A DNA stretch of 10,888 bases, from positions 1 through 10,888 of IMG/VR virus record IMGVR_UViG_2529293142_000034; one strand, 5' to 3'. Each line of letters begins with the position of its first letter. Positions within the stretch are counted from its first letter, which is position 1. A model generated the notes under the pieces. It saw nothing but the letters and a program-made list of their open reading frames with translations. It did not search any database and was not told where the DNA came from. This stretch comes from a virus (taxonomy: Duplodnaviria > Heunggongvirae > Uroviricota > Caudoviricetes). Of the stretch, positions 1,362-10,888 are shown piece after piece. Both the position numbers and the translations under genes were made by a program.

Positions 1362-3657
1362 TTAAATTACTTCGACATTTTGATCATCATTAGCACTTTG
1401 CTGAACGTCGACATTAATGTCATCATCATTCGGCAGAGCCTTATAATATTCTCCCATCATCATTTTATAATGTGCAGCATTATCGCTGTATTCAAATATT
1501 TTCTGGAATATATTGAGATTTTTACTAACCGAGTTTTGGTCTAGAGCAATGTAAAGATCGTCATTTGAATGATGTGAACCGTCATTAATCCAAGATATCA
1601 ATGAATTAAATGCTATTTTTTCATCACCATCAAAATGTTTTTCGAGTTTCCATACATTAAATCCACCTAAAATTTTAAAGTAATTTTCAAGAATTCTTCT
1701 CATTGTGTTTTGTACTGTTGTGCAATTAATATCAGGGCGCCTTATCTCACTCCATAGTAAATCATATGAAGTTTTAATTGGATTGCATGCATGGCTTTCA
1801 ATGAACGATAATTTATCCTTTTTCCTAATGACCCAAAATGTTTCATCAGGACGAGCAGTATCTAAATTTCTATTCATATCGAAAGTTAACTCTTTATGAA
1901 AATAAATATTGTGAGTTAGGAAAAAGACCTGTTTTATACGGCCATTATTGTCTCTAATGTCTTTTATAAGTTTTTTCATTAATGAGCTAACTATAAACAG
2001 AATATCACTATCTAAACTTGATATAGGATCATCAAAGACAACTACTCGATCGTTCATTACACCAGATGTTGAATTACTTCCTTTGATGAGATTATAGAAA
2101 TATAGGAATGTGATAAAAGTTTTCTCACCCTCACTGAGTGTGCTTAGGGCATTATCACCATTTTCACGTACGATTCTATAGCTAAACGAATCGGATGTCG
2201 GTGCAAGGCTAAAATTTTTGAAGCCAAATGATAAAAGTATCTTATTTATAGCAGTGATTGTTGGCGTGACACTGGTTCTTTTAGATTCCTCGCTGGATAT
2301 ATTTTCAATGATATCATCTAATCTGACTTTGTCTTTTTCTAAACCCTTAATTAACCCTTCCTTAGCTCTATTTAACTGTTCCTTATCAGTATTATATTTA
2401 TTTATTTTATCAGCCAGTTCAACTTTAACTATATAATGCCATATTTCTTTTGTTAGTTTTTCTCTTTCCATGCTCCTGTTTTTGTATAGTTCATTATTTT
2501 CAAAAACTTGATTGTTAGCTGCAAGAATGATGTCTAATAATTCTTTGCCAGGCTCTAGAAGTCCTGTCATAGCGACAGGTGTACTTAATTCAGCCAATTT
2601 TCTTTTTGCTTCATCTATATTCCTTGATAATATTGATAGAATTAATTTGGATTTTGTGTTAAACAAATCCAAATCAAGGAAGGCATAGTTCCCTTCATTT
2701 ATTTTCGCAACATATTCATCAAATAAACGATACTCATGAGTATAATTTTTTAGTAATACATTAATGCTTTCTGTTTTTTCTAAATATTTTGTGTCAAAGT
2801 AACTTTCTAAATCCGATTTCAAACTACTGGGCGTATTTTGTTGGCAAAATGGACATTTGGTTTCAAGGTTATCATAGTACTTTATCCCTTCTTTAACCCA
2901 GTCACTGTTATCTAGTTGCCTTATGATTTCGGCAACGCTTGCATCTTCTTTTCCAAGAATTTTCTCTTTCCATATTTCATCGTCAACTATTTTTTTATGT
3001 TGCTAAAATTTGGTAAGGGAATTATATTGTGAACTGTTAGCGAGTCTGAGTAAACACTACCAGCCTTCGATATTAAGTATGGTAACTGGTGTAAATCTAC
3101 TTCTTTTGAATATAGCTCCTCTAATACCTTTGATTTGAATTTTTCCTGGCTGCTTCTTAAACCTTCAAATGCTTTATAGAAGTAATCATCATGTTTTTCT
3201 TTTGATTCCAGCAATCATTTTTGAAATCCAATTCAATTTTTTCAAGTTTTTGATAGATACCTAAATTTGCATTATCATTGTTATTTAAATTTCTTTTCTT
3301 GGAATCTATTGAGCTTTGCTCTTTATCCCTTTGTTGTATCAATTTGTCTATGTTATCTGTGAGCTCTTTTGTTTCTTCACCTAAAGTAAAAATACCTTTA
3401 ATACTATCTCCAGAAAAATTATTTACAACAAAATCCCTGTTGTAGACATAAGGAGTTAATTGATTGTTGTTTTTCCATTTAATCTGGCAAGTTGGAAAGC
3501 CTAAAGCATTATGAATTATTTTGCTAATTGTAGTTTTTCCAGCACCATTTGAGCCATATATGTAATTGATTTTCATTAGAGGCATCATATATTGAACGTC
3601 ATTTCCATATGAACCGGCTTGAGAAACGCTTATAGACTCTATCATTATCTTTTTCAT
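1362..3657 (-). CDS. Cargo gene: RloC/PrrC-like ABC-type ATPase with central CPFC motif and C-terminal putative nuclease domain (about 765 aa when joined); interrupted in this sequence by two homopolymer frameshifts
   Basis: Three adjacent minus-strand ORFs (3157-3657, 2987-3214, 1362-2822) join into one frame if one base is added at the T5 run 3194-3198 and at the T7 run 2990-2996. Walker A YGSNGAGKTT is at 3535-3558; reading the 1362-2822 frame upstream of its TTG start gives ...KYYDNLETKCPFCQQNTPSS (CPFC at 2844-2855). Signature-like LSEGEK, Walker B/D-loop VVVFDDPISSLD (about 2025-2045) and H-loop FFLTHN follow. Family assignment (AAA_13 / RloC-PrrC-like) is from motif recall, not a search. 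Confidence 0.7.
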
Positions 3658-3899: not shown

Positions 3900-3999
3900 C
3901 GCCCGCTTTGCGGGGCGGTTTTAATGCAGTTGCACTGACACGCTCAGACCGCGCCGGGAATGGCGCGGTTTGCAGAAAATGAGGCAGGGAAACGCATGC

Positions 4000-4033
4000 A
4001 AAGCCATGCACCTTATCGATGCATGGCTTTTTT
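4000..4033. terminator. Intrinsic terminator-like hairpin (10-bp stem AAAGCCATGC / GCATGGCTTT, 11-nt loop) with a 3-prime T-tract on the plus strand and an A-tract on the other side; probably bidirectional, just downstream of psu
   Basis: Stem pairs 4000-4009 with 4021-4030, followed by TTT at 4031-4033 (T-run 4028-4033). Lies about 30 bp beyond the corrected psu stop (4064-4066). Confidence 0.5.
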
Positions 4034-4063
4034 CAGTAAAAACGGGCGGATTTTCGGGGAATT

Positions 4064-4635
4064 TTACACTGACTGACGTGATGCCAGTTGCGCACTTTTA
4101 CGCGAAAAAATCATGTTCTGCGCAGGGGTGAATTTTTCACGGCTGTCATCCACCGAAGCCGCGTCAGGCCTGAATCCGATGGTCGTTAAAATGTCGCTAT
4201 CCTGTGCGGAATAATTAATTTTTCCCCCTTCGCAAGCCAGGACAGAAGGGCTTCACGCAGGGCATCTGTGGCACGCTGTATGGCACAGTTTCGGGCAATG
4301 GCCGTCAGCTCACTGTATCCCATCAGCTCCGGTGCCAGTGCCGCCGCCAGTGCTGTGCCGTGCTGCTGCATAAAATCATTCAGCCGGTCGCGGATGCTGA
4401 TGTGCTGAACGGCTTCATGCGAACGAATATAACGACCGGCGGCCTGATTCACCTGCCATTTTCTGACTTCGATAATATTGCGTAATTCGTCCAGGCGACT
4501 GACGTTTCTGCCTTCCCCGGACAGAAGCCGCAGATATTCCTGTTCGGCCGCAGCCAGCTCATTTTTGCGTTGCAGCCATGCTGCTTTGTTATTCTGACAG
4601 GTGTCAAAGGCCTGCTGTAAGGCTGTGCTTTCCAT
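4064..4635 (-). CDS. psu: Psu polarity-suppression / capsid-decoration protein (190 aa after a one-base correction); C-terminus out of frame here because of a homopolymer indel
   Basis: ORF 4186-4635 (149 aa) ends ...LSWLAKGEKLIIPHRIATF*. The adjacent frame reads KINYSAQDSDILTTIGFRPDAASVDDSREKFTPAQNMIFSRKSAQLASRQSV* to a stop at 4064-4066. The join needs one extra T in the T5 run 4219-4223 and gives 139+51 = 190 aa, the length of P4 Psu as I recall it. Confidence 0.85.
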
Positions 4636-4707: not shown

Positions 4708-5208
4708 TCATTCCAGACGCAGCGAATATGATTGTGTTTTTAAGCGTACTGGCGGCAGTTCCTGTTTTTCATGCAGGCTTTCTGCCAGTTCGTCCGGCGT
4801 GACCGGGCGGACAATGAAACGGTTGATGGTCTGAAGCGTTTTAAACACCAGACCACAGCCCGGATCCGTGCACACATAAAAACGCTCGGTGACTTCCTGA
4901 GACAGACGCCTCGATGTTCTTGACAGTGCAAGGCCTTTACATCTCCGACAACAATATCCGGTAACAAGCATTCTTTTCGGGCGTTTCATACTGCCGGAGG
5001 CTGACGTCAGTGAATCGCGGTATCTCTGTTTGCCTGAAATGTATTCCATTCCTGAATCTTTACTGTCAGAGAAAAAGCTTTCACTCGCTTCAAATGTCGC
5101 AGAGCAATAAATATTCCGGCACTGTGCAATCATTATCTTGGTGCCATCGTCCATGAAATGTGCGCGGCGGGTGTGAGCAACATGTCCACACGACGGGCAG
5201 TAAATCAT
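4708..5208 (-). CDS. delta: Delta late-gene transcription activator with two tandem Ogr-type zinc-finger domains (166 aa)
   Basis: Intact 166-aa ORF with two C-x2-C-x22-C-x4-C modules (CPSCGHVAHTRRAHFMDDGTKIMIAQCRNIYC and CCRRCKGLALSRTSRRLSQEVTERFYVCTDPGC). Its ATG (5208-5206) overlaps the sid stop as ATGA. Confidence 0.9.
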   Translation of the reverse strand: MIYCPSCGHVAHTRRAHFMDDGTKIMIAQCRNIYCSATFEASESFFSDSKDSGMEYISGKQRYRDSLTSASGSMKRPKRMLVTGYCCRRCKGLALSRTSRRLSQEVTERFYVCTDPGCGLVFKTLQTINRFIVRPVTPDELAESLHEKQELPPVRLKTQSYSLRLE

Positions 5209-5938
5209 GACAGCAGTCCTCTGGCCTTAAGCTCTGCTCCCTGCTGGTCTATTTTGTCCTGCCACACCTTGCGCTGTGCCGGTGTGCCTGCCACCTCATA
5301 ATCCATGTGCGGGAGTGTTGCCGCTGACAGTCCGGTCAGCCGGAGAACCGGCTCACCGGTGAGGCTGATTTGCATCTGTTTTATTTTCTGTTCCAGCGAT
5401 GATTTCACCTGCTGCATGACAGCCTTTTCCGGTGCGACGTAGCCCTGATGGCCGGTGGCGTTGGCGAGCGGATTTTCCTGTACCAGAATGCTCAGATGCA
5501 TTGCCCGGACAAGCGCCTCACAGGTTTCATTCAGGGCGTGTTCCAGCTCATGCTCTGCATACAGACTCAGCAGGTGATGATGTGCCTTCCGGTAGGCGGT
5601 GGCCGTGCTGTCACACGCCCCTTTCAGGCGTTCACGTTCAAAATTCAGCACCACGGCCAGATTGTCATATTCCTGTACCAGCTCCCGGCGTGCCACGCGC
5701 TCAATGTGGCGCTGTTTCAGCTCGTCGCTCAGGACACCACCGGCTGCACGAAAGGCTGTGCGCCAGTCATCAGCGTCATTTCCGTCGGCCTGCGCCAGCG
5801 CATTTTTTCCTGCTCTGCCCGTTCAATGGCCTTGACGGTCTCATCCATCAGTCGGGCGTTCTCAAGGTGGGCGGCTCTGGCCTTTTCCAGTTGTGCCAGT
5901 GCGGGTTGCAGATATTCAGGGATGGTGTTGTCAGACAT
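5205..5938 (-). CDS. sid: Sid capsid size-determination (external scaffold) protein (244 aa after a one-base correction); split in this sequence by a homopolymer indel
   Basis: ORFs 5729-5956 and 5205-5696 join if one T is added to the T6 run 5803-5808: ...AIERAEQEK + NALAQADGNDADDWRTAFRAAGGVLSDELKQRHIER + VARRELV.... Starting from ATG 5938 (GAGGAG Shine-Dalgarno 7 nt upstream) gives 45+36+163 = 244 aa, the P4 Sid length as I recall it. Confidence 0.85.
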
Positions 5939-5972
5939 TTTCCGGCTCCTCGTCACTTCAGGTTAAGAAAAT

Positions 5973-6028
5973 TGTGACGTACACCGGACAACAACACGAC
6001 GCATTGCAGATGTGCCAGTCCTGACACA
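5973..6028 (-). promoter_or_regulatory. Candidate late promoter for sid-delta-psu with two TGT-N12-ACA activator sites of the Ogr/Delta type, centres 38 bp apart
   Basis: TGT-N12-ACA read at 5973-5990 and 6011-6028. If the distal site is centred near -55, the start of transcription falls about 5964 and the proximal site near -18, leaving a roughly 25-nt leader before sid ATG 5938. The -55/-18 arrangement is recalled for P4 late promoters. Confidence 0.55.
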
Positions 6029-6106
6029 GGAGACTCATCCTCAGACCGGCAAGCCAGGAAAAGGTCGCAGGAAAAACCGGCTTACTGTTTGTTTTTTTAT
6101 ATTTTA

Positions 6107-6220
6107 CTGTTCACCTCTGTTCACCATAAGAAAAAAGATAAGTAATACAGTAAGTTAAAGGGTGAACAATCGCAGTAATGACTGTTCACCGTCTGTTCAC
6201 CACTGTTCACCCGTTCATGG
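6107..6220. repeat. Phased 9-mer repeats CTGTTCACC (five direct copies, one inverted, one degenerate) in the divergent control region between sid and alpA
   Basis: Direct copies at 6107-6115, 6117-6125, 6182-6190, 6193-6201 and 6203-6211 (10-11 bp spacing within each cluster); inverted copy GGTGAACAA at 6161-6169; degenerate CGTTCATGG at 6212-6220. Existence is certain; function is inferred. Confidence 0.8.
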
Positions 6221-6295
6221 ACTTTTTGTGCTGTTTATTACTTTTTATTTTTATTAATTAACTGAAATAAATAAGAAAAACAATTTGTATTTCAC

Positions 6296-6301
6296 TATAA
6301 T
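6296..6301 (+). promoter_or_regulatory. Consensus -10 hexamer TATAAT facing alpA; candidate early promoter element
   Basis: TATAAT at 6296-6301 in an AT-rich stretch; no convincing -35 at 17 bp spacing, so this is weak. Confidence 0.25.
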
Positions 6302-6490
6302 TTTTTCCAGCTCCTTCCAGAGCGTTTTTAAAAGCTATCTGGCGCTGATGTGCAAAAAACACACAGCCATTGTAAGGCTGCCGGAACAAATCCCCCCTGT
6401 TGCGTCTGCCAAAAATATTCACAAAATAAAGCGCTACCCCGAAGCCGGACGGACTTATCCGGTGCTGTATGGACATTACGAGGTAGCCCG

Positions 6491-6760
6491 ATGCTAAGCC
6501 TGTTTTTTCTCCCCGTCTCCTGCCCCTGTGACGCCACTGATGCCGCTGCCGGACATCACGCAGGTAGCGTTTTTTTACGCTGCCGGAAGTGATGCACCTG
6601 TGCGGCCTGTCACGCTCGACCATCTATGAACTCATCCGTAAGGGGGAATTTCCGCCGCAGGTGAGTCTTGGCGGTAAAAAATGTGGCCTGGCTGCACTCT
6701 GAAATCACCGCATGGATGGCCGGGCGCATTGCCGGACGCAAACGGGGGTACGACGCATGA
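6491..6760 (+). CDS. alpA: AlpA-family (Vis/excisionase-like) helix-turn-helix regulator; reading frame broken twice at homopolymers in this sequence
   Basis: Core at 6580-6702 reads [34 protein letters not shown]...; removing one A from the A6 run 6676-6681 continues as ...[29 protein letters not shown] (stop 6758-6760), a close fit to the AlpA-family pattern. No in-frame start precedes the core unless one T is added to the T7 run 6570-6576, which joins it to ATG 6491 (GAGG 7 nt upstream). N-terminal boundary is uncertain. Confidence 0.65.
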
Positions 6761-7158
6761 TGATGCCCGCTCTGCAAAAAGTCCCTTTTTCTGGCTTGCC
6801 TTTTTCCGGCATTTGCGGATATAGTTTTTCTGCTGCCGCAAAATCGGCAGCCGGGCGTGGAAACCCGAGCAATTCACAGGCGGCATATGACGCGCCATGC
6901 GTCTTTTTTTGTGTCGCAATCAACGCCACAGAGCGCCAGATTATGGTGTGGTGTGTGGTCAGTCGTGCAGATGGCATTCCGTGCATCCTGCCCGCGTCCG
7001 CTCATTATGCCGCAGAGTCAATGGTAGCTCAGGCGGGGCAGCCTCCGGGCTGGCCGGTATCCTGTGAAGCCGGTATTTCCACCCCCGTCTGGGCTATCGC
7101 CATCGAGCGTGGAAACTCCGGCGATAGCGTTATTTGCTATTCACAGGAGGCTGCCATC

Positions 7159-7356
7159 ATGGCTACAACCCTCACCCCCTCACACCCTGAATTTGTCTTT
7201 GTGTTTGCGGCTGTCCGTCGCGCAGACCGTCATCCCCGTATCTGCATGCTTCGCACCGTCGCCGGTGATGAACGCAGTGCCCGCCGTTCCCTTGTCCGTG
7301 ACTATGTGCTCTCCCTTGCTGCCCGTCTGCCGGTGGTGGAGGTGTCCCGTGCGTAA
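7159..7356 (+). CDS. Small early protein (65 aa), possibly an Icd-like cell-division inhibitor
   Basis: ATG 7159 preceded by AGGAGG at 7145-7150 (8-nt spacer); sequence [65 protein letters not shown]. The stop overlaps the next gene start. The Icd-like label is from weak recall of prophage annotations. The same frame is open upstream to 6757, so the true start could lie further upstream. Confidence 0.4.
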
Positions 7357-7636
7357 TAAAAAAGCCCCTCAGACCGTCTCAGCGCGTCATGACGCCCGTG
7401 AACACCTCAGCATTGAGGCTTACCATAAGCTCAACCGCGCCAGCGCCGTATCCCAGTTTGTTGGGGGTGATTTGATTCACCGTGAACTCTCCGGCCTGCA
7501 TCAGCTCTACATTCCGCATATTTTCAGCTACCTGAATGAAGATATTGATTTTGTGCTGAATGAGCTGAAAGCCAAAGGCCTGTGCCGCGATTTTCTCGCC
7601 CAGCAGAAAGACCGGGGAGACAGGACGCATGTTTGA
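7349..7636 (+). CDS. Small early protein (95 aa), possibly the epsilon (derepression) homologue
   Basis: GTG 7349 with GGAGG at 7338-7342; no in-frame ATG exists downstream, so the GTG start is required. It overlaps the upstream stop (GTGCGTAA) and the downstream start (ATGTTTGA). The epsilon assignment is by position and size only. Confidence 0.5.
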
Positions 7637-8084
7637 TTTTCCCCAGCCCGGTGAGATTTACCGTTCTGCCGGTTTTCCCGATGTGGCCGTGGTCGGCATT
7701 CTGGAAGACGGTATTCCGTGGGAAATGCCGTACCGCTGCCCGGACATTGTCTGGAACCCGTACCGCCGTAAATTCAGTATCCTTGTGCGTATCCTCGCTG
7801 ACGGGCGCACCACAGACATCCCGCTGGGGCGTTTTCTGCGGGAATTTACCTGTGACCGTCCTGACCTGTTTAAACGCAGCCCCGTAAACCGGCATGCGGT
7901 ACTGAAAGAAATGGCCGGAGACCCGGAATTACAGAAATGGCGGGAGAAATATCTGGATATTTACCCGCAGGCCCCTGTTCCGGTCAGCCGGGCGGCACCG
8001 GTGGCGCGGGAATGGCGGGAAATTCCCCGCACGGAGCCTGACCCGGAAATCACCCCGGATAACAGTTACCGCAATTATCTGTAA
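7629..8084 (+). CDS. Conserved early-operon protein, 151 aa (orf151-like)
   Basis: Intact ORF whose ATG overlaps the stop of the preceding gene; its size and position before alpha match the P4 left-operon layout as I recall it. Function unknown. Confidence 0.65.
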   Translation: MFDFPQPGEIYRSAGFPDVAVVGILEDGIPWEMPYRCPDIVWNPYRRKFSILVRILADGRTTDIPLGRFLREFTCDRPDLFKRSPVNRHAVLKEMAGDPELQKWREKYLDIYPQAPVPVSRAAPVAREWREIPRTEPDPEITPDNSYRNYL

Positions 8085-8219
8085 TTAAAAAACGACCCCC
8101 GAAAAATTAAATGTGCGTATTCGCGCAGGGATACGCACGTCTTCAGGAGACGCAGATATGCCTTATCAGTTAATGCAACCGGCACGGAATGCAGTCATCT
8201 GTCACAGGGAGGAAAACAA

Positions 8220-8540
8220 ATGAAAACACCCTTACCGCCCGTCTTACGCGCTGCCCTTTACCGTCGCGCTGTCGCCTGTGCCTGGCTGACCGTGTGCGAA
8301 CGTCAGCACCGCTACCCGCATCTCACCCTTGAGTCACTGGAGGCGGCCATCGCCGCTGAGCTGGAAGGCTTTTATCTGCGCCAGCACGGTGAGGAAAAAG
8401 GGCGTCAGATAGCCTGTGCCCTGCTGGAAGATTTAATGGAATCCGGCCCCCTGAAGGCCGCGCCGTCGCTGTCCTTTCTCGGGCTGGTTGTGATGGATGA
8501 ACTCTGTGCCCGTCACATAAAAGCGCCGGTACTGCACTGA
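8220..8540 (+). CDS. Conserved early-operon protein, 106 aa (orf106-like)
   Basis: Intact ORF with GGGAGG upstream of ATG 8220; it ends 14 bp before the alpha start. Function unknown. Confidence 0.65.
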
Positions 8541-8554
8541 AGGAGAACAACACC

Positions 8555-10888
8555 ATGAAAATGAACGTAACCGCCACCGTCAGCCATGCACTCGGCCACT
8601 GGCCGCGTATCCTCCCGGCGCTGGGGATTCAGGTGCTGAAGAACCGTCATCAGCCCTGTCCGGTCTGTGGCGGGAGTGACCGCTTCCGTTTTGATGACAG
8701 GGAGGGGCGCGGCACCTGGTACTGCAATCAGTGTGGTGCCGGTGACGGCCTGAAACTGGTTGAAAAGGTGTTTGGTGTTTCCCCGTCCGATGCGGCCGCA
8801 AAGGTGGCTGCCGTGACCGGCAGCCTGCCCCCGGCTGACCCGGCAGTGACGGCTGCCGCCGGTGCTGAAACAGACGCTGCCCGGAAGAACGCCGCCGCAC
8901 TGGCACAAACCCTGATGGCGAAAACCCGTCCCGGAACCGGTAACGCCTACCTGACCCGCAAGGGCTTTCCCGGCCGGGAATGCCGGATGCTGACCGGCAC
9001 ACACAGAGCCGGTGGCGTGAGCTGGCGTGCCGGTGACCTTGTGGTGCCACTGTATGACGACAGCGGCGAACTGGTTAACCTTCAGTTAATCAGTGCTGAC
9101 GGCCGTAAGCGCACCCTGAAAGGCGGACAGGTCAGGGGCACCTGTCACACCCTTGAAGGACAGAATCAGGCCGGAAAACGTCTGTGGATAGCGGAGGGAT
9201 ACGCGACCGCACTTACCGTGCATCACCTGACCGGTGAAACGGTGATGGTGGCGCTTTCTTCCGTGAATCTCCTTTCTCTGGCCAGCCTTGCCCGGCAGAA
9301 GCATCCGGCCTGTCAGATTGTCCTTGCTGCTGACCGTGACCTCAGCGGTGACGGCCAGAAAAAAGCCGCCGCAGCCGCAGATGCGTGTGAAGGTGTTGTT
9401 GCCCTGCCGCCGGTCTTCGGTGACTGGAATGATGCCTTCACGCAGTACGGCGGGGAAGCCACCCGTAAGGCCATTTATGATGCCATCCGGCCACCGGCTG
9501 AAAGCCCGTTCGACACCATGAGCGAAGCGGAGTTTTCCGCCATGAGTACCAGCGAAAAGGCCATGCGTATCTATGAGCATTACGGCGAGGCGCTCGCGGT
9601 CGATGCCAACGGCCAGCTTCTGTCCCGCTATGAAAATGGTGTCTGGAAGGTGCTGCCGCCACAGGACTTTGCCCGGGATGTGGCCGGGCTGTTTCAGCGT
9701 CTGCGCGCGCCGTTCTCCTCCGGGAAGGTGGCCTCCGTGGTGGACACCCTGAAGCTGATTATTCCGCAGCAGGAAGCCCCCTCCCGCCGCCTGATTGGCT
9801 TTCGTAACGGCGTGCTCGACACGCAGAACGGCACGTTCCACCCGCACAGTCCGTCACACTGGATGCGCACCCTGTGTGATGTGGATTTCACCCCGCCAGT
9901 GGAAGGGGAAACGCTGGAAACCCACGCCCCCGCGTTCTGGCGCTGGCTTGACCGTGCCGCCGGTGGCCGTGCGGAAAAACGCGACGTGATTCTGGCCGCA
10001 CTGTTTATGGTGCTGGCAAACCGCTACGACTGGCAGCTCTTTCTGGAGGTGACCGGTCCCGGCGGCAGCGGCAAAAGTATCATGGCCGAAATAGCCACCC
10101 TGCTGGCCGGGGAGGATAACGCCACATCGGCCACCATTGAGACGCTGGAATCCCCGCGTGAACGTGCCGCGTTAACTGGCTTCTCACTGATACGCCTGCC
10201 GGACCAGGAAAAATGGAGCGGCGACGGTGCCGGACTCAAGGCCATCACCGGCGGCGATGCGGTGTCCGTTGACCCGAAATACCGGGATGCGTACTCCACG
10301 CACATCCCGGCGGTGATTCTGGCCGTGAACAATAACCCGATGCGCTTCACCGACCGCAGCGGCGGCGTGTCACGCCGGCGGGTGATTATTCACTTCCCTG
10401 AACAGATAGCCCCGCAGGAGCGCGACCCGCAGCTTAAGGACAAAATCACCCGCGAGCTGGCGGTCATCGTGCGTCACCTGATGCAGAAATTCAGCGACCC
10501 GATGCTCGCCCGGTCACTGCTTCAGTCCCAGCAAAACTCAGACGAGGCGCTGAACATCAAACGGGATGCCGACCCGACGTTTGATTTTATCGGCTATCTG
10601 GAAACCCTGCCGCAGACCAGCGGCATGTATATGGGGAACGCCAGTATCATCCCGCGCAATTACCGTAAATACCTCTATCACGCCTATCTGGCCTACATGG
10701 AGGCAAACGGCTACCGGAACGTACTCAGTCTGAAAATGTTCGGGCTGGGGCTGCCGGTGATGCTGAAGGAATACGGACTGAATTACGAGAAGCGCCATAC
10801 CAAACAGGGGATACAGACCAACCTGACGCTGAAAGAGGAAAGCTACGGCGACTGGCTGCCAAAATGTGACGACCCTGCAACAACCTGA
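8555..10888 (+). CDS. alpha: Alpha protein: P4-type primase/helicase (zinc finger + Toprim primase + D5-like NTPase), 777 aa, complete
   Basis: AGGAG 9 nt upstream of ATG 8555. N-terminal zinc-binding motif CPVCGGSDRFRFDD...CNQCG, Toprim-like acidic region (EGYATAL ... LAADRDLSGDG) and Walker A GPGGSGKS at 10055-10078. The 777-aa length equals that of P4 alpha as I recall it. Confidence 0.93.
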   Translation: MKMNVTATVSHALGHWPRILPALGIQVLKNRHQPCPVCGGSDRFRFDDREGRGTWYCNQCGAGDGLKLVEKVFGVSPSDAAAKVAAVTGSLPPADPAVTAAAGAETDAARKNAAALAQTLMAKTRPGTGNAYLTRKGFPGRECRMLTGTHRAGGVSWRAGDLVVPLYDDSGELVNLQLISADGRKRTLKGGQVRGTCHTLEGQNQAGKRLWIAEGYATALTVHHLTGETVMVALSSVNLLSLASLARQKHPACQIVLAADRDLSGDGQKKAAAAADACEGVVALPPVFGDWNDAFTQYGGEATRKAIYDAIRPPAESPFDTMSEAEFSAMSTSEKAMRIYEHYGEALAVDANGQLLSRYENGVWKVLPPQDFARDVAGLFQRLRAPFSSGKVASVVDTLKLIIPQQEAPSRRLIGFRNGVLDTQNGTFHPHSPSHWMRTLCDVDFTPPVEGETLETHAPAFWRWLDRAAGGRAEKRDVILAALFMVLANRYDWQLFLEVTGPGGSGKSIMAEIATLLAGEDNATSATIETLESPRERAALTGFSLIRLPDQEKWSGDGAGLKAITGGDAVSVDPKYRDAYSTHIPAVILAVNNNPMRFTDRSGGVSRRRVIIHFPEQIAPQERDPQLKDKITRELAVIVRHLMQKFSDPMLARSLLQSQQNSDEALNIKRDADPTFDFIGYLETLPQTSGMYMGNASIIPRNYRKYLYHAYLAYMEANGYRNVLSLKMFGLGLPVMLKEYGLNYEKRHTKQGIQTNLTLKEESYGDWLPKCDDPATT

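Follow-up and report, generated by a model that had tools for sequence, protein, structure and literature searches.

A repeat block in a P4-type satellite prophage that very probably represents its replication origin

The element and its genes

The window, by which we mean the whole stretch of 10,888 nucleotides analysed here, is 96.6% identical to phage P4 (X51522) across 75% of its length. Its genes follow the order int, cargo, psu, delta and sid, then vis, the cI region, epsilon, ORF151, ORF106 (cnr) and alpha, and judged by its sequence the window is a P4-type satellite prophage. The features outside the repeat block to which the following sections refer are these:

5973-5990 and 6011-6028, unstranded: two TGT-N12-ACA sites, late promoter Psid, upstream of sid; left boundary of the origin spacer
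6371-6388, unstranded: TGT-N12-ACA site, late promoter PLL, upstream of vis; right boundary of the origin spacer
6491-6760, plus strand: homologue of vis / ORF88 (AlpA family), disrupted; tblastn with P4 Vis finds it in three different frames
8220-8540, plus strand: ORF106 = cnr, copy-number regulator; 100% identical to P4 ORF106
8555-10888, plus strand: alpha gene, primase / SF3 helicase / origin-binding protein, the putative binder of the iterons
10565-10864, plus strand: alpha C-terminal winged-helix origin-binding domain (residues 671-770)

The alpha, cnr, epsilon, ORF151, delta and int genes are intact. A frameshift lies near codon 45 of sid (5208-5939) and another near codon 140 of psu (4067-4635), and vis carries three +1 insertions relative to P4, with no intact ORF listed for it; frameshifted alpA pseudogenes are common in the P4-like family, and the same source names the cnr gene family (PMC8628076). 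Relative to P4 there are 15 indels between 3900 and 10888, 11 of them in 6265-6680 and none in 6681-10888, and several fall outside homopolymers. The window's homopolymer lengths occurred in 0 of the 344 E. coli genomes that share its allele of the short cassette described in the last section. The pattern looks like local prophage decay more than uniform sequencing error, an assembly with indel errors also being possible. The cargo between int and psu, a known P4-like defence hotspot, consists of one candidate defence gene (AAA_13 / PADLOC PDC-S06) on the minus strand (1362-2822 and 3157-3657). This gene is split into two ORFs, one of 166 aa from its N-terminal part, which covers profile positions 1-146, and one of 486 aa from its C-terminal part, which covers positions 271-727; what lies between them is out of frame.

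A repeat block between two divergent late promoters

A motif search of the window found five exact direct copies of the 9-mer CTGTTCACC, starting at 6107, 6117, 6182, 6193 and 6203, and an unbiased repeat scan gave start-to-start spacings of 10, 65, 11 and 10 bp, confirming the two clusters with 10-11 bp phasing that a preliminary description of this DNA had reported. The inverted copy of that description, TTGTTCACC at 6161-6169, is exact at the level of the 8-mer TGTTCACC and has one mismatch when read as a 9-mer. The octamer TGTTCACC occurs six times (five direct copies, one inverted), always within 6108-6211 and nowhere else in the window; this count compares with 0.27 expected, and at least six copies were reached in 0 of 200 dinucleotide-preserving shuffles. 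The true repeat unit is the octamer. Its copies, which we call type 1 iterons after the P4 annotation discussed below, and the A/T-rich DNA beside them are arranged as follows:

6108-6115, plus strand: type 1 iteron 1, TGTTCACC, exact octamer; aligns with P4 X51522 'ori type 1 repeat' 9406-9413
6118-6125, plus strand: type 1 iteron 2, TGTTCACC, 10 bp after iteron 1; aligns with P4 9396-9403
6126-6160, unstranded: A/T-rich spacer from the iteron pair to the inverted iteron, GC 25-30%, with a conserved block within
6161-6168, minus strand: type 1 iteron 3, inverted, GGTGAACA on the plus strand; aligns with P4 9353-9360
6183-6190, plus strand: type 1 iteron 4; aligns with P4 9331-9338
6194-6201, plus strand: type 1 iteron 5, 11 bp after iteron 4; aligns with P4 9320-9327
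6204-6211, plus strand: type 1 iteron 6, 10 bp after iteron 5; aligns with P4 9310-9317
6212-6300, unstranded: very A/T-rich flank of the three-iteron cluster, candidate DNA-unwinding element

The iterons adjoin A/T-rich DNA on this measure: in 60-bp windows, GC is 13-25% at 6210-6300 and 25-30% at 6090-6180. The flank at 6212-6300 lies within the rep_origin feature of P4, and its sequence varies among relatives. In the spacer at 6126-6160, a block (AATACAGTAAGTTAAAG / AAAAAGATAAGTAATACAGTAAGTTAAAG) shows by eye a strong conservation for DNA outside the iterons, over a range that runs from Escherichia to Pantoea and Serratia; it could be a host-factor site or a priming or melting site.

A further, degenerate copy had been proposed at 6212-6220 (CGTTCATGG), and we considered this segment as a seventh iteron. 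It matches the 9-mer at about 6 of 9 positions, its P4 counterpart differs (CGTTGATGG), and the alignments revealed neither an annotation for it in P4 nor conservation in relatives. The segment was rejected on these grounds and is probably not a genuine repeat unit. Lone copies of the 7-mer core stand at 7398-7404 and 10325-10331. The latter (TGTTCAC on the minus strand, at about nucleotide 1771 of alpha) falls within the coding sequence of alpha, and 46 of 80 species loci have a copy at the matching position; it was rejected as an iteron and is probably a by-product of conserved codons, read as GTG AAC AAC.

Psid and PLL, the two divergent late promoters, flank the spacer that the iterons occupy, and the sid start codon is at 5939 on the minus strand. 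The promoters were placed by their TGT-N12-ACA dyads, which we take to be Delta/Ogr activator sites of P2/P4 late promoters, and no such dyad occurs within 6107-6220. The repeats had been assigned to a divergent control region between the late promoter and the early operon, which is nearly right: the interval is bounded by two late promoters and not, strictly speaking, by one of them and the early operon.

Alignment with the P4 origin

Positions 5700-6800 of the window align with P4 8724-9822 at 93.4% identity, and the features annotated in P4 under the aligned stretch are an 'origin of DNA replication', six copies of 'ori type 1 repeat' and three of 'ori type 2 repeat'. In a pairwise alignment the six octamers pair one-to-one with the six type 1 repeats of P4, all of them identical, and the block at 6107-6211 differs from P4 by only two bases, the spacer bases 6126 and 6130. 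The octamers thus follow the arrangement of the P4 origin, with two direct copies, one inverted and three direct, and the rep_origin feature of P4 (9086-9809) spans the aligned region, which in the window is flanked by the sid and vis homologues.

From this alignment to the annotated P4 ori and its type 1 repeats, we conclude with high confidence that the repeat block serves a P4-type satellite as its replication origin (ori), the octamers being type 1 iterons bound by alpha. The window agrees with the P4 ori (X51522; PDB 1KA8; Ziegelin et al. 1993; Yeo et al. 2002) in the octamers themselves and in their order, orientation and spacing, and shares its neighbours, sid on one side and vis on the other. 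Unlike P4, the window has unrelated sequence in place of the ~45-bp segment of type 2 repeats, and it carries frameshifts in vis, sid, psu and the cargo gene. The finding is already known in kind, as the P4-family origin was described in the 1980s-90s and is annotated in GenBank.

Alpha as the likely iteron-binding protein

The alpha proteins of the window and P4 are identical at 770 of 776 residues (99%), and the Pfam domains found on a protein identical to that of the window are Zn_Ribbon_Prim, Toprim_3, D5_N and Pox_D5. Residues 671-770 are 100% identical across all 100 residues of PDB 1KA8 (E = 4e-66), P4 alpha's winged-helix DNA-binding domain (PMC2777425, PMC4234260), and the origin repeats have been assigned to this winged-helix domain of the alpha primase-helicase (PMC4234260). 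For P4 itself, binding by alpha and the start of replication at this origin are known from published work (PMC4234260). On these comparisons alpha, and not Vis/AlpA, likely binds the iterons of the window. The unit that alpha recognises is presumably the type 1 octamer specifically, a point for which we draw on the GenBank annotation and one secondary source. The preliminary description was right in its general idea of protein sites on phased repeats, having named the wrong protein and the wrong function.

After induction, the element's own alpha would bind the octamers, and as neighbouring sites lie one helical turn apart, the bound domains would sit on one face of the DNA. Alpha would also bind a second octamer cluster, crr, just downstream of the alpha gene, and we take it to bridge ori and crr. 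It would then open adjacent A/T-rich DNA, prime and start theta replication, and we infer that melting takes place in the flank at 6210-6300 or in the spacer at 6126-6160. Cnr (ORF106) would modulate alpha binding and so limit copy number, presumably by tightening it. In this scheme alpha binding, flank melting, the ori-crr interaction and the role of Cnr come from the literature or from inference. With several of its genes frameshifted, the window copy may be unable to complete the cycle even with an intact ori.

The motif clusters at ori and crr across species

In X51522, crr (4291-4590) carries ten annotations of 'ori type 1 repeat'; the feature table names this stretch 'cis required region for replication', and it directly follows the alpha terminator. 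Exact octamers occur in the P4 genome in ori and crr only. The stop codon of alpha is the last codon of the window, whose own crr would lie past that end. Its closest E. coli relative (L003) has an identical ori set and five exact copies 51-314 bp after alpha, with none elsewhere, and contigs that encode exactly the window's alpha have 4-5 exact octamers in the 450 bp past the stop. An iteron cluster 55-320 bp past the alpha stop is common to P4, L003, the contigs with identical alpha and most species loci.

For the species scan, one genome per species was searched with the alpha protein as query, which yielded 80 P4-like loci with alpha identities of 57-100% from Escherichia, Enterobacter, Klebsiella, Citrobacter, Pantoea, Serratia, Pectobacterium, Rahnella, Yersinia and Rosenbergiella. 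Counted per locus and per 250 bp over these 80 loci, the core TGTTCAC clusters in two places only, ori and crr: between -1.5 and -2.75 kb relative to the alpha start its density rises to at most 1.81 copies, and the initial 250 bp past the alpha stop hold 2.45, against a background of ~0.02-0.04. The top repeated 8-mers found de novo upstream of alpha were CTGTTCAC[C/T] or near variants in most elements, and they recurred downstream. When 45 origins from other species were aligned, the iteron columns were 88% identical to the window, compared with 56% for the columns between them (Mann-Whitney p = 2e-11), and the layout of two direct copies, A/T spacer, one inverted copy and three direct copies was kept throughout the alignment, down to 57% alpha identity. 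The motif that the preliminary description had found in this one element is thus conserved in related satellites, where it is clustered at ori and crr. Taken with the match to the P4 ori and the identity of the 1KA8 domain, this conserved distribution is what the sequence comparisons made here support directly.

Pantoea-type elements have CTTCAC-type iterons at ori and also at crr. CTTCAC-type sites made up 27 of 44 crr sites in Pantoea-type elements versus 31 of 174 in other elements (Spearman 0.55, p = 3e-4), a statistic that is uncorrected for phylogeny and comes from essentially one clade, so that the Pantoea shift amounts to about one evolutionary event. If both sites are read by one protein, the variants at ori and crr should change together. 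Conserved across Enterobacterales, the two-site signature offers a simple means of finding the ori and crr sites of P4-like elements, more than a thousand of which are unannotated; these comparative results add modest value, and the re-identified origin itself adds very little. Four short contigs with alpha 98-100% identical to the window's (L009-L011 and L045) came from bins labelled Clostridiales, Ferruginibacter, 'bacterium' and Ruminococcus, and are most likely mis-binned enterobacterial contigs.

Other readings of the repeats

The repeats had previously been read as operators for the AlpA/Vis regulator encoded downstream, through which the divergent late promoters would be controlled cooperatively. 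Several observations fit this reading, as the repeats sit between two late promoters and a Vis homologue lies ~280 bp downstream; nearly all related elements have Vis intact and in synteny. Polo and colleagues are also said to have reported in 1996 that Vis regulates PLL and Psid in P4. However, the P4 record labels these octamers origin repeats, and the second motif cluster, in P4 as in other species, lies in crr downstream of alpha and away from the promoters. Vis reportedly acts at attP and is needed for excision (a 2004 finding of Cali and colleagues), and yet TGTTCACC is absent from the P4 attP (3915-4174; searched from 3900 to 4200). Moreover, vis has three frameshifts in the window, which therefore holds no intact copy of it, whereas all six octamers are intact, and published work assigns the ori repeats to alpha (PMC4234260). 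Since Vis was intact in nearly all of the 62 loci examined, its presence or absence among relatives does not by itself discriminate between Vis and alpha as the binder. On the origin annotation, the crr copies, the absence from attP and the broken vis gene, we regard Vis as a very unlikely binder of the repeats.

The other suggestion, that the repeats are RNA-level targets of the immunity antisense RNA, like seqA/seqC of P4, fits the use of short repeated RNA sequences in P4 immunity and the non-coding nature of the region. In a scan with Rfam covariance models, 6107-6220 gave no match, and the hits were the C4/CI antisense RNA (7017-7104), isrK (6832-6909) and the c4-a1b1 targets (6819-6871); the C4/CI and a1b1 elements thus map to 6819-7104, away from the repeats. 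With up to one mismatch allowed, neither strand of the window holds a copy of the 9-mer outside the origin, so that the early operon contains no complementary partner for it. Both late promoters, as judged by the TGT-N12-ACA sites, have the repeats on their upstream side, and transcription across the repeats from either promoter would not be expected. With the known RNA elements elsewhere, no complementary 9-mer and this position relative to the promoters, the suggestion is refuted for practical purposes. A third reading is compatible with the origin: iteron-bound alpha might have a further, modulating effect on late transcription, by which replication would be coupled to expression of the late genes. 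The argument for it is one of geometry, the iterons lying 80-160 bp from the Psid and PLL activator sites and keeping their place between these sites across species. To our knowledge, no literature supports a modulation of Psid or PLL by alpha at the iterons. The placement may, however, merely reflect the conserved gene order of the family (PMC8628076), and we consider such dual use improbable.

Comparison with other origin systems

Iteron plasmid origins (F, P1, R6K and pPS10, with Rep/RepA) resemble that of P4 in having phased direct repeats beside an A/T-rich region, a winged-helix initiator and a second iteron cluster elsewhere on the replicon. P4 differs from the plasmid systems in that its initiator is itself a primase and SF3 helicase, its crr is needed in cis for replication and is not only an incompatibility or copy-control locus, and its iterons are only 8 bp long. 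The PICI/SaPI satellite origins (PMC6092414) belong to elements and proteins unrelated to those of P4; the PICI ori adjoins the pri-rep genes, whereas the P4 ori lies 2.4 kb upstream of alpha, with crr downstream.

A polymorphic cassette beside PLL

The type 2 repeats of P4, read on the other strand, are TTAAAGCAA, TTAAAGCCA and TTAAAGTCA, with 10-bp spacing (X51522 9176-9205). They fit the consensus TTAAA(G/C)NC(A/C) and on this basis are P2 Cox boxes; P2 Cox binds upstream of P4 PLL and activates this promoter, whereas P4 is not activated by WPhi Cox, which uses another repeat, 12 nt long (PMC3936717, PMC5009727). Like the iterons, the Cox boxes at PLL form an array with ~10-bp phasing in the same intergenic region, and they are bound cooperatively by a small winged-helix protein, Cox (PMC3936717, PMC5009727). 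They differ from the iterons in sequence and lie ~100 bp to their right.

In the alignment, the window has at 6301-6347 an unrelated ~45-bp allele in place of the type 2 repeats of P4, with two 10-bp TTCCAG repeats and a palindrome at 6317-6342. No cox-box-like 9-mer scoring at least 8/9 occurs in the window's cassette, which accordingly holds no type 2 repeat of the P4 kind. A third allele is present in another relative (L006), so that at least three unrelated alleles occupy the cassette, just upstream of the PLL activator site, in elements that are otherwise >95% identical. The alleles examined by eye have short repeats of their own with a period of ~10 bp. Among ~1215 ori-region places in 1008 E. 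coli genomes, the window allele was found at 365 and the P4 allele at 480, and across species the region beyond the iterons is variable. Because the type 2 repeats are replaced in the window, 365 places share the window allele and the region is variable, these repeats do not count among the conserved features of the origin and seem instead to be part of the control of PLL.

Comparison of the window's cassette with phage genomes gave chance-level matches only (E > 1), and no resemblance to the Apl sites of phage 186 was seen. A likeness to the WPhi Pe-Pc region was also considered and rejected, the best match being 11 of 14 bases (CTAGAAGGGACTGG versus CTGGAAGGAGCTGG), about what chance gives in an all-against-all comparison of short stretches. 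Elements with different alleles share 98-100% identity in Vis, alpha, Cnr and epsilon, and among Vis, alpha, Cnr, epsilon, the cI region and the integrase we found no protein that co-varies with the cassette allele. We suggest, as a tentative idea that has the odds against it, that the cassette is an exchangeable helper-sensing module, each allele docking a Cox/Apl-type protein of a different P2-like helper and thereby deciding which helper derepresses the element. If true, a polymorphic cassette of this kind would bear on the helper specificity of P4-like satellites, and the Cox-box cassette, as the only non-textbook feature here, may deserve more work. In the window, the non-P4 cassette occurs together with a cI region and an integrase that are both P4-like. 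The window's cI region is 98.6% identical to that of P4 over ORF137, compared with only 82-84% for its closest relatives by ori sequence, a contrast that points to a mosaic of immunity type, cassette allele and integrase.
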